The position numbers and the translations under genes are program-made. This document shows, in pieces, positions 694 to 19,082 of a stretch of 64,000 bases of DNA. This stretch comes from a virus: IMG/VR virus record IMGVR_UViG_3300038678_000291, positions 19,018 through 83,017 of that record; one strand, given 5' to 3'. How positions within the stretch are numbered: position 1 is the first letter of the stretch; every line of letters begins with the position of its first letter. Below the pieces are notes generated by a model. That model ran no database searches and had not been told where the DNA came from. It was given only the letters and a program-made list of their open reading frames with translations.

Positions 694-699
694 TATTTC

Positions 700-1450
700 T
701 CCTTTCTTGATTGGTGGTAAGTGGTGGCTGGCAGGACTTTCATCTCCCTGCCTGGAACGGTTCCCCGCTACTCGCTTCGCCCCGATCGGAAAAGAAGCTC
801 TTGGTGCATGCCAAAACCGCAGCCACCACATCGTTCACCAGCCCCTCGCCTCGATCCCGGTTGCAGTCGGCGAGCCCACCCTGTGATTCCCCGCTGGCAT
901 AATTAGTTTGTCCCCCGCCCCCCTGGTTCCCTGTATTTCCCCACCCAGAGGATTAGGCCGCCCAATGTCACATCACCTCGGCCAGCGGGGAGCATTAGGT
1001 TCCCTGCGGGCAGCTTGCTCATGTACGCTGCGGATAGCCTCCAGCCTTGACAAGTGGAATGCAAAGGCACTGTCTGGCTATTTTCCCCTATCTGTCCACC
1101 ACTGATACCGCAGGGAATCTTGTCAAAATGTGGATGGGCATGCGCTAGCCTTTGTCAACGCCGTTAACTCTCCCGAAGGATACAAAGGCGGGCCGACGCC
1201 ACCCCAGAACCATGGGCGTACTCAGCATTTCTGCCTATCCGTTTCCCTGTTTAATGTGCGGGCTTACACATATACCCAAGTCGGTATTTGCCCATCCACA
1301 TTGTCAAAGTGCAGTTTGTTTGCCTAGCTCTCCTCTCTCCAGGCTTGGCAGCCCCTAGGTCGTACTCACCACCGCTGCTACCCTTCCATTTCCTGTTTGC
1401 TCTAGCCTTACCACATCCTCAGCTTGGGCAAGCTTCAGTCGTTACTGGCT
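700..1450 (-). ncRNA. Putative large multi-domain structured non-coding RNA
   Basis: No coding-strand ORF >=60 aa over ~750 nt of a gene-dense phage. Perfect helices at 721-730/820-829, 1000-1009/1108-1117, 1127-1140/1289-1302 and 1148-1155/1182-1189, with a cUUCGg tetraloop on the minus strand. Confidence 0.65.
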
Positions 1451-1847
1451 ATTGCCTGGACTGGTTGCCCGGTGCTGGTGGATGGGTTAGCAAGTGCTCA
1501 TGCTCGTAAATATTGCCAAGTATTTCCCAATCAAGTGTTACGTGCCCTCTAAAATATCGGCTCCATGTTTTTTGACTTGCAAAAGGATAGAAACCTGTCT
1601 TGCCTTTTAGCCAGCTCACTATTTCCGTTTCGCCCCAGTTATTTAAAACAATATCCCCCTCATATATTTCTCGGCCATTCTTGTCTATGAGGCCAGTGTA
1701 TTGCATAAGCTCAACCTTGTCTCCACCGAGGTCATGAAAAATTAGTTCATTTTTGCCTAGCCATTTTCCAATTGTGTGGTTTGATGTAGGGAAAACATCA
1801 AATCTCATTTCTTGTTTATCCCATGCTCTAAACTTAAACTCCCTCAT
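1449..1847 (-). CDS. YopX family phage protein
   Basis: MREFKFRAWDK...LMQYTGLIDKNGREIYEGDIV...EILGNIYE, the YopX signature. Confidence 0.92.
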   Translation of the reverse strand: MREFKFRAWDKQEMRFDVFPTSNHTIGKWLGKNELIFHDLGGDKVELMQYTGLIDKNGREIYEGDIVLNNWGETEIVSWLKGKTGFYPFASQKTWSRYFRGHVTLDWEILGNIYEHEHLLTHPPAPGNQSRQ

Positions 1848-5690: not shown

Positions 5691-5703
5691 TGCTCTGCCT
5701 TTC

Positions 5704-5763
5704 ATGTTAAGGTTAACTGCCTGGCCCAACCTACCACAAGGCGATAAGCTGGATAGAAAGTTA
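5704..5763 (-). repeat. Intergenic hairpin repeat, copy 1 (diverged)
   Basis: Minus strand TAAC-tttct-atccagcttatc...ggtaggttggg-ccaggca-GTTAACCTTAACAT. Confidence 0.7.
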
Positions 5764-5970: not shown

Positions 5971-5982
5971 GATACTGCCCCC

Positions 5983-6044
5983 CATGTTAAGGTTAACCGC
6001 CTATCCCAACCCACCCGGTGGATGGGCTGAAGAGGGAGTTAAGC
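5983..6044 (-). repeat. Intergenic hairpin repeat, copy 2
   Basis: GCTTAAC-tccct-cttcagcccatcc-acc-gggtgggttggg-ataggcg-GTTAACCTTAACATG. Confidence 0.8.
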
Positions 6045-6317: not shown

Positions 6318-6599
6318 TTAATCCTCATCATCAACAAAATAAAATCCTGAATTCTCCAATGCGGCACGGTATATCGAAGCCACATAATTACACTCAAAGT
6401 TTCCTGCGTCACCAAACCATTTGTCGTGTTTGGAGCTATAGCGTGCAGATACAATTTGGTTGTTGCCAAACATATCGTGCCTGCTTGCAATATTGGCGGC
6501 AAAAGCAATTCGTTCCCTGTATCCAGCCCTGTTGTTAATCTGCCGGAGGTGGATAGTTTTTCCGGTCTCTCCCTTGTGGCCTTTGTGGATGATTTTCAT
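6318..6599 (-). CDS. Hypothetical protein, duplicate copy 1
   Basis: 93 aa, identical to 8014..8295. Confidence 0.65.
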   Translation of the reverse strand: MKIIHKGHKGETGKTIHLRQINNRAGYRERIAFAANIASRHDMFGNNQIVSARYSSKHDKWFGDAGNFECNYVASIYRAALENSGFYFVDDED

Positions 6600-6612
6600 G
6601 GTTGGTTCTTTT

Positions 6613-6670
6613 TTAAGGTTAACCGCCTATCTCAACCCACCCCGGCGGATGGGTTGAGGAGGAAGTTAAG
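6613..6670 (-). repeat. Intergenic hairpin repeat, copy 3
   Basis: CTTAAC-ttcct-cctcaacccatcc-gcc-ggggtgggttgag-ataggcg-GTTAACCTTAA. Confidence 0.8.
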
Positions 6671-8013: not shown

Positions 8014-8295
8014 TTAATCCTCATCATCAACAAAATAAAATCCTGAATTCTCCAATGCGGCACGGTATATCGAAGCCACATAATTACACTCAAAGTTTCC
8101 TGCGTCACCAAACCATTTGTCGTGTTTGGAGCTATAGCGTGCAGATACAATTTGGTTGTTGCCAAACATATCGTGCCTGCTTGCAATATTGGCGGCAAAA
8201 GCAATTCGTTCCCTGTATCCAGCCCTGTTGTTAATCTGCCGGAGGTGGATAGTTTTTCCGGTCTCTCCCTTGTGGCCTTTGTGGATGATTTTCAT
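8014..8295 (-). CDS. Hypothetical protein, duplicate copy 2
   Basis: Identical translation to 6318..6599. Confidence 0.65.
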   Translation of the reverse strand: MKIIHKGHKGETGKTIHLRQINNRAGYRERIAFAANIASRHDMFGNNQIVSARYSSKHDKWFGDAGNFECNYVASIYRAALENSGFYFVDDED

Positions 8296-8315
8296 GGTTG
8301 GTTTCCATGTTTAGG

Positions 8316-18158: not shown

Positions 18159-19082
18159 ATGATTAAAACACTTGCTATTCACGGAGGCGGAATTAGGGGG
18201 ATTATTCCAGCGGTAATATTAAATTGGATGGAAAAACATGTCGGTAAGCCAATTGCGGAAATATTTGATTTAGTCGCAGGCACTTCCACCGGTGGGATTC
18301 TAGGGGCAGCCTTAAGTATTGGGTTCACCGCCGAAGATATAATTGGGATGTACGAATATGAAGGAGAGCAAATTTTCCCTCAATCTGTATGGCGAAGTTT
18401 ACACACCATTGGCGGTGCCGCCGAGGAGAAATACCCGTCGGGAGGAATTGAGGCAGTGCTACAAAAGTATTTTGGTACCCACAAACTATCTGATGCCGAA
18501 ACAAATCTTATCATTCCCACCTATGACATAGAGCGCAGACGCCCAATTTTTTTCAAATCGTATAAAGAAAAATTTAAGACTATTTTGATGTGGCAAGTGG
18601 CTCGGGCTACCTCCGCAGCCCCCACATTTTTTGAACCGTACAAATGGTATATGCCCAACGGCGATTATTTTTCTCTTATAGACGGGGGGATGTTTGCTAA
18701 CAACCCGGCCATGTGCGCCTATGTAGAGGCATTGGCTGAGTTTGATGCAACTGATTATATGGTAGTCTCATTGGGTACTGGGTCAGCAACACAACCAATT
18801 CTACATGAAGACGCACAGGGTTGGGGGTTGGTTGGGTGGGCACCGCATATTCTTGATATTAACTTTGATGGCCAATCAGACACAGCAGACTATCAACTTA
18901 ATCGGCTTTTGCCATTGAATAGATTCTATAATTTTCAGCCCATGTTAGTTGGCGTAAATGAGGCAATGGATGATGCCAGCCCTGAGAACATCCGGGCATT
19001 GAAGCTGCTGGCCGAAAACTATATTGAAGACAATAAGTCAATGCTGGAGGCTCTTTGCGATATTCTGGCATATCAAGTTTAG
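18159..19082 (+). CDS. Patatin-like phospholipase
   Basis: GGGIRG oxyanion motif, GTSTG catalytic Ser, ATSAAPTFF, DGG..ANNP. Confidence 0.93.
   Translation: MIKTLAIHGGGIRGIIPAVILNWMEKHVGKPIAEIFDLVAGTSTGGILGAALSIGFTAEDIIGMYEYEGEQIFPQSVWRSLHTIGGAAEEKYPSGGIEAVLQKYFGTHKLSDAETNLIIPTYDIERRRPIFFKSYKEKFKTILMWQVARATSAAPTFFEPYKWYMPNGDYFSLIDGGMFANNPAMCAYVEALAEFDATDYMVVSLGTGSATQPILHEDAQGWGLVGWAPHILDINFDGQSDTADYQLNRLLPLNRFYNFQPMLVGVNEAMDDASPENIRALKLLAENYIEDNKSMLEALCDILAYQV

Follow-up and report, generated by a model that had tools for sequence, protein, structure and literature searches.

What is the role of a 755-nt stretch devoid of genes in the middle of the early operon of a phage? This question is raised by the interval between the genes of YopX and YqaJ in the window, the whole 64,000-nt stretch of DNA analysed here, which runs from base 19018 to base 83017 of a phage record of 83 kb in IMG/VR. 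The phage stretch was found in a marine sediment metagenome DNA run, its probable source, which was the sole run with a match; no RNA run gave one, and the contigs of the DNA run covered no part of the spacer.

Setting of the spacer in the early operon

The early operon lies on the minus strand downstream of a predicted sigma-70-like promoter (2650-2621). Its genes follow the promoter in the order ribbon-helix-helix (RHH) gene, 197-aa gene, YopX, spacer and YqaJ, and YqaJ is followed by a 124-aa gene, RecT and then more early genes. The late region contains the terminase, portal, capsid and CysH-like protein genes. The start codon of YqaJ at 693-691 is common to its homologues. No terminator was found inside the spacer, which lies within a terminator-free transcription unit. 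A TTGACA sequence was ruled out as a promoter because it has no usable -10 element, and the sequence GCACTTTGACAA may be boxA-like. The features of the locus, in the direction of transcription, are:

1449-1847, minus strand, YopX gene (PF09643)
694-1448, minus strand, ORF-free, GC-rich spacer of 755 nt, from the YopX stop to the YqaJ start
1303-1448, minus strand, 5' segment of the spacer, no long closing helix (folding z-score +0.9)
1127-1302, minus strand, domain closed by a perfect 14-bp helix, with C(UUCG)G at 1178-1173
1000-1117, minus strand, family B domain, perfect 10-bp helix, predicted cloverleaf-like four-way fold
888-991, minus strand, domain closed by a perfect 11-bp helix (TCCCCGCTGGC/GCCAGCGGGGA)
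830-887, minus strand, linker with a 6-bp hairpin (CTCGCC 874-869 / GGCGAG 850-845)
721-829, minus strand, family A domain, 10-bp closing helix (GTGGTGGCTG/CAGCCACCAC) and three internal hairpins
694-720, minus strand, C/A-rich leader with the Shine-Dalgarno sequence (SD) AAGGAG at 699-704
693-691, minus strand, ATG start codon of the YqaJ gene (PF09588), preceded by this SD

The spacer is non-coding and GC-rich

A preliminary description of this DNA had seen no coding-strand ORF between YopX and YqaJ. This was borne out: the longest minus-strand ORF encodes 55 aa, and no credible ORF was found in 694-1448 on either strand. The spurious ORFs of the spacer gave zero matches to Pfam and PHROG and were absent from a collection of 15 billion proteins, and their translations had no homologue either. 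A hidden or recoded gene was dropped as a candidate, since no frame opens with any single stop reassignment. The GC content of this non-coding spacer is 55-62%, as against 42-44% in the flanks and about 44% for the genome, and resembles that of the phage's own tRNA. The motifs GGGGAA and CAGGGA do recur as described, each being present four times for about 0.5 expected, and occupy mixed structural contexts. Three further ORF-poor stretches are found in the same early operon (genome 12540-13378, 16609-17309 and 11721-11960, minus strand).

Perfect helices tile the spacer

An inverted-repeat search revealed four consecutive perfect inverted repeats that tile the spacer, of 10 bp (721-829), 11 bp (888-991), 10 bp (1000-1117) and 14 bp (1127-1302). 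Three of these helices had been described previously and were confirmed, namely 721-730/820-829 (10 bp), 1000-1009/1108-1117 (10 bp) and 1127-1140/1289-1302 (14 bp), as was the presence of a cUUCGg loop. Other proposed domains fared less well: those at 838-898 and 911-991 are weaker alternatives to the perfect 11-bp helix 888-898/981-991, and the one at 1324-1359 is enclosed in the segment 1303-1448 which, like the linker 830-887, folds no better than shuffled sequences.

We evaluated this arrangement by counting perfect inverted repeats of at least 10 bp with a loop of 30-260 nt in 5000 dinucleotide shuffles of the 755 nt. The shuffles contained at most 2 such repeats, with a mean of about 0.11, and none of the 5000 reached 3, compared with the 4 observed. 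The density of such repeats is about 12 times the genome-wide value. The helix-closed, modular and non-coding architecture of the spacer is real and statistically unusual. The closing helices differ in sequence, which suits tandem domains that fold independently.

In two domains a 5-bp arm abuts the closing helix and stacks on its 3' strand without a gap, as had been described. These T-position hairpins are GCAGG-11 nt-CCTGC in 721-829 (731-751) and GCAGC-12 nt-GCTGC in 1000-1117 (1010-1031); their loops of 11-12 nt contain no TTC and hence are not T-loops. A D-like hairpin with a GGUGG loop and a long central arm are also predicted in 1000-1117, the multi-arm junction folds of both domains being single-sequence predictions. 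Shells with a 5-bp arm stacked on a perfect closure of at least 8 bp occur twice in the 755 nt, and stacked-arm shells number 12 in 166 kb (both strands) versus about 2 in shuffled genomes.

Other repeats and structures were noted on the way. The YqaJ coding sequence itself contains two perfect inverted repeats, one of 12 bp (65-247) and one of 11 bp (-13 to 198), whose loops measure 159-190 nt. The G-rich interior of 888-991 contains a G-quadruplex-type run at 946-912 on the minus strand (GGG-T-GGGG-N7-GGG-N5-GGGGGG-C-GGGGG).

The folding signal resides in the helices, which carry no strand information

Folding energies were compared with those of shuffled sequences. On the transcribed strand, where the preliminary description had proposed such a check of its folded array, the z-score is -0.43 for the 755 nt and -0.88 for 721-1302, i.e. 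not beyond shuffles. The opposite (plus) strand gives -2.04 for both stretches. Individual domains range from -1.8 to -2.9 on the minus strand and from -2.6 to -3.9 on the plus strand, and the wobble extension of two closing helices is on the plus strand. Since folding energies give the transcribed strand no advantage, the signal consists of the long perfect helices themselves, and these, being perfectly Watson-Crick paired, carry no information on the strand.

Two families of paralogues share ends, orientation and position

Both 721-829 and 1000-1117 have paralogues elsewhere in the early operon, with the same ends and unrelated interiors. Without exception, the paralogues shortly precede either a ribosome-binding site or the phage tRNA-Met. 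Families A and B together occupy five operon sites, and all five copies are on the transcribed strand; orientation and position relative to genes are constant in both families.

Family A consists of three minus-strand elements that start with GTGGTGGCYG at the 5' end and finish with a 3' hairpin followed directly by CAGCCACC. All three copies end 20-28 nt ahead of a start codon. Two of the three share an identical 17-nt 5' end and a 47-nt 3' block, which spans the hairpin loop, the 3' strand and the C/A-rich leader and continues into the SD; their interiors are unrelated. In the spacer this homology covers the T-position loop and 3' strand of 721-829 together with 694-720, which align over 47 nt with the leader of the family A member located before an HTH gene. 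The third member, at genome 17222-17066, outside the window, is predicted to fold into a cloverleaf with a five-way junction. Its D-like arm ends in a GGG loop, a hairpin with a UACG tetraloop takes the place of an anticodon loop, the variable position is occupied by an arm of 73 nt, and the T-arm is canonical, GGTTCGAATCC (GCAGG-UUCGAAU-CCUGU). The T-stems of family A members differ, with U.G in one and G.U in another, and these pairs can form on the minus strand alone. Changes among paralogues are one-sided only, and no compensatory change was found.

In family B, the paralogue of 1000-1117 shares an identical 20-nt 5' end, including the TTGACAAGA leader, and an identical 9-nt 3' end. This paralogue is an 87-nt helix-closed element, also outside the window, 6 nt upstream of tRNA-Met(CAU) (genome 10579-10653, minus strand), which has an encoded CCA, scores 71 bits and is the phage's only clear tRNA. 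The tRNA-like shell family to which 721-829 belongs has its other members in two of the three ORF-poor stretches listed above, which lie outside the window.

The early operon contains repeats of other kinds. A third intergenic family of 41 nt, 68-83% identical and with the core ATGTTAAGGTTAAC, sits between small early genes at 5695-5735, 5975-6015 and 6601-6641. A perfect 290-nt direct repeat (6318-6607 and 8014-8303, 1696 nt apart) duplicates a 93-aa ORF and could be either a real duplication or an assembly artefact.

The spacer is new to the collections searched

Relatives of the spacer were sought in phage, plasmid, IMG/VR, GTDB and metagenome collections with similarity searches, through the proteins encoded next to it and with exact patterns; no homologue was obtained. 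The relatives reached in IMG/VR through YopX, YqaJ and TerL have at most 40-53% protein identity and no nucleotide similarity. Exact-pattern scans with the family B leader, the family A 5' end and the ends of 1127-1302 gave no copies outside the phage, and a metagenome scan for the family A shell gave 24 matches, all of them chance occurrences in GC-rich coding DNA without a T-arm. The spacer is new to the public collections searched. An 85%-identical YqaJ is encoded on a 2.7-kb contig.

Among 80 phages with a related YqaJ, the gap upstream of this gene has a median length of 32 nt, and only one of them has an RNA gene there, so that the spacer is lineage-specific. A descriptor scan of these 80 loci for tRNA-like shells gave only ordinary or degenerate tRNAs. 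The single upstream RNA gene is a tRNA (RF00005, 42 bits) that ARAGORN classes as tRNA-His and whose acceptor stem is mismatched at its top two pairs; it lies in a 440-nt spacer directly upstream of a YqaJ with 32% amino acid identity.

The spacer matches no available RNA model

Rfam gave zero matches at the gathering score over the 64 kb, and in relaxed mode only chance lncRNA matches (E 0.08-3.4). Both modes applied to the window, the 12 kb upstream and two other loci returned tRNAs only. ARAGORN found no tRNA or tmRNA gene in the window, and tRNA and tmRNA models gave no match to 500-1700 at E up to 10. The tRNA-Met is the sole tRNA in the 12 kb upstream, and lower-threshold ARAGORN tmRNA calls elsewhere in the genome look spurious. 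As Rfam, tRNA and tmRNA matches are lacking, the novelty claimed for the region is not removed and, as far as the available models go, it is not a member of the tRNA, tmRNA, GOLLD, ROOL, Y-RNA-like, Csr/Rsm or CRISPR-repeat families.

The idea that the region might be a CsrA/Rsm-type sponge was rejected on its motif counts (GGA, 21 for 21.3 expected; A.GGA, 7 for 5.5), and Rfam gave no Csr/Rsm match. A CRISPR array or solitary repeat was also rejected, there being no direct repeats of 25-40 nt and no Rfam CRISPR-DR match. The arms of 888-991 (CCCCGC...GCGGGG), which are loosely reminiscent of type I-E repeat cores, lie 82 nt apart. The strong helices are local and follow one another along the region, which makes a single global fold of the GOLLD or ROOL type unlikely.

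A proposed explanation: RNA modules acting in cis

The proposal of a tRNA-like array made in the preliminary description was upheld in part: acceptor/T-arm geometry in two domains, non-coding status and modularity speak for it, whereas the transcribed-strand z-score does not. The tRNA-like component is credible but unproven. We infer that the helices function in RNA, for which the chances appear somewhat better than even, and that RNases may recognize them, with a possible effect on expression.

The explanation that we tentatively put first is that the spacer encodes a set of RNA modules, some of them tRNA-like, which are transcribed with the early genes and either mark where the early transcript is cleaved or stabilize it. 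Transcription of the early operon, from YopX towards YqaJ and RecT, would include the spacer as a series of RNA modules that each close on their own and are not translated. Of these, at least 721-829 and 1000-1117 may form anticodon-less tRNA-like shells, made of an acceptor-like helix and a T-position hairpin, which would be recognized, in the fashion of the t-elements discussed below, by tRNA-processing or structure-specific RNases (RNase P, RNase Z/BN, RNase E). Cutting by such enzymes would split the polycistronic transcript, leaving a defined short leader before the YqaJ ribosome-binding site, and would release or protect stable structured RNAs. For 721-829, the predicted 5' cut is between 827/826 (7/5 stack) or 828/827 (8/5 stack), and the predicted 3' cut is after the putative discriminator C723. 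A reading at the RNA level is favoured by the tRNA-like GC content, the constant orientation and position, the wobble pairs possible only on the minus strand and the lack of an internal terminator. Against RNase processing, the 3' tails lack the form CCA, and RNase P would be hindered by the pairing of leader and trailer.

Palindromic DNA as an alternative

It is less probable, although still a sizeable possibility, that the helices are terminal inverted repeats without RNA function, the spacer being a tolerated landing zone for palindromic or mobile DNA, in which MITE-like or cassette-like elements, or regulatory cassettes spread by recombination, have built up and been duplicated. The perfect Watson-Crick arms, and a fold signal that is equal or stronger on the non-transcribed strand, are in line with such DNA. 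Family ends that are 100% identical over 15-20 nt around unrelated interiors are a signature of DNA-level recognition or exchange; for MITEs, unrelated interiors would be atypical. The domain 1127-1302 is flanked by direct repeats TTTGACA (1308-1302 and 1127-1121), a 7-bp sequence on either side of the 13-bp repeats of 1128-1301. Deleting 1127-1302 together with one TTTGACA copy restores the family B leader almost exactly. The two flanks may have arisen as a target-site duplication upon insertion, or each may be a copy of a leader motif that recurs ahead of every module. When MITE criteria are applied, a TIR-like repeat combined with a 7-bp direct repeat is present only there; the other four elements show no target duplication, and no transposase or integrase gene is nearby.

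The spacer has also been enlarged from within. The segment 1303-1448 carries degenerate copies of three blocks of 1127-1302 (1349-1378 resembles 1205-1234, 1398-1409 resembles 1141-1152 and 1389-1398 resembles 1243-1252), from which we conclude that the spacer grew at least partly by internal duplication. Such block duplications, the further intergenic repeat families of the operon and the lack of conservation of the spacer among the 80 phages would all fit mobile DNA. However, no copy of any element was found in the IMG/VR, phage or plasmid collections, and four distinct adjacent repeat sequences would need four element families. In addition, one paralogue has a canonical T-arm, a D-like arm and wobbles that fit only the transcribed strand. 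Should the helices be no more than palindromic DNA, the locus would be an unremarkable case of repeats accumulating between the genes of a phage.

Less likely alternatives: trans-acting RNAs and tRNA decay

A role of the modules in trans is unlikely, and cis processing or stabilization, the preferred explanation, ranks ahead of it. The modules would then be processed into stable small RNAs, with a constant tRNA-like scaffold and a variable cargo, and act on host or phage targets: they might divert defence enzymes directed at tRNAs or acceptor stems, bind to the array-less type IV-B Csf proteins of the phage, or have a regulatory role. The constant shell and variable interiors of the three family members would agree with this, as would the precedent of GOLLD and ROOL, large phage RNAs near tRNA genes (PMC12286853), and the tRNA-like genes of undetermined anticodon in marine Vibrio phages, whose 3' part resembles member 17222-17066 with borderline significance (E 0.02). 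Type IV-B complexes assemble on heterogeneous non-CRISPR RNA (PMC7937560), and the window contains a CysH-like gene, the PAPS-reductase type being usually located beside type IV-B operons. However, nothing was found that ties the spacer to the Csf genes, located on the opposite strand at a distance of 12 kb. The scanned early proteins include no RNA-processing, Ro, ligase or CCA-adding gene product, the CsrA-type motif is not enriched, and no target complementarity was detected beyond the paralogues.

A more specific version, a hitherto undescribed phage RNA class of anticodon-less scaffolds in which a constant acceptor/T-arm shell presents an interchangeable cargo of 80-150 nt, is quite doubtful. 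Its members would be encoded as an early-operon array, be released by host tRNA-processing enzymes and serve as decoys or guide-like partners, for instance of the array-less type IV-B Csf complex.

Least probable is a decayed tRNA island, in which remnants of tRNA genes would have lost their anticodon arms, gained insertions and become functionless: the tRNA-like GC content and acceptor/T-arm geometry, the real tRNA-Met and the one canonical-T-arm element in the same operon, and the tRNA-His before a distantly related phage YqaJ are in its favour, but no tRNA model matches the region at E up to 10, domain lengths range from 104 to 176 nt, and closures that are perfect over 10-14 bp, together with family ends that are 100% identical, point to maintenance and not to decay.

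Comparison with known systems

Mobile intergenic regulatory cassettes exist in phages, e.g. the PeSL cassettes of T4-type phages. Like these and like MITEs, the phage elements are short intergenic repeats with conserved ends, located between small early genes, and one domain has a flank resembling a target duplication. They differ from them by the lack of a promoter consensus, by unrelated interiors, by their tRNA-like geometry and by the absence of copies beyond their own genome in the collections searched.

GOLLD and ROOL are large phage RNAs of unknown role located near tRNA genes or tRNA islands (PMC12286853). The spacer has in common with them a length of several hundred nt, a phage origin and an association with a tRNA gene. 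In contrast to their one ornate global fold, it consists of local helices and has no Rfam match.

Another comparison is with phage tRNA islands and pseudo-tRNAs of marine Vibrio phages, such as the gene annotated as 'tRNA-OTHER' in Vibrio phage 1.250.O (MG592617.1), which has an unreadable anticodon and scores 38 bits with RF00005. The 'tRNA-OTHER/Und' genes of these phages share 37 nt, corresponding to the T-arm, 3' strand and trailer, with family A member 17222-17066 at 87-89% identity, a borderline match (E 0.02). Both are tRNA-shaped without a readable anticodon; the Vibrio genes are about 73 nt long and score as tRNAs (38 bits), whereas the phage elements are 109-174 nt long and do not score.

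The closest working analogy is provided by the t-elements found in plant mitochondria. These tRNA-like folds are non-canonical, have a GGTTCRANYCC T-arm as their defining feature, and direct cleavage by RNase P and RNase Z at the ends of mRNAs (PMC1920247). The t-element arrangement of an acceptor-like helix with an arm at the T position stacked on its 3' strand is found in 721-829 and 1000-1117 and, as in t-elements, it would occur in polycistronic transcripts close to mRNA ends. The GGTTCRANYCC motif itself is present in one paralogue, 17222-17066, and absent from both window elements, whose loops are GAGATGAAAGT and GTACATGAGCAA. Further differences are the setting, an organelle for t-elements and a phage here, and the much larger interiors of the phage elements, for which RNase cleavage is a prediction. 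If the modules do act as RNA, they would be a candidate RNA partner added for array-less type IV-B systems and a natural version of the tRNA scaffold that stabilizes recombinant RNAs. They would also show how phages structure long polycistronic early transcripts and constitute a bacterial-virus counterpart of organellar tRNA punctuation.
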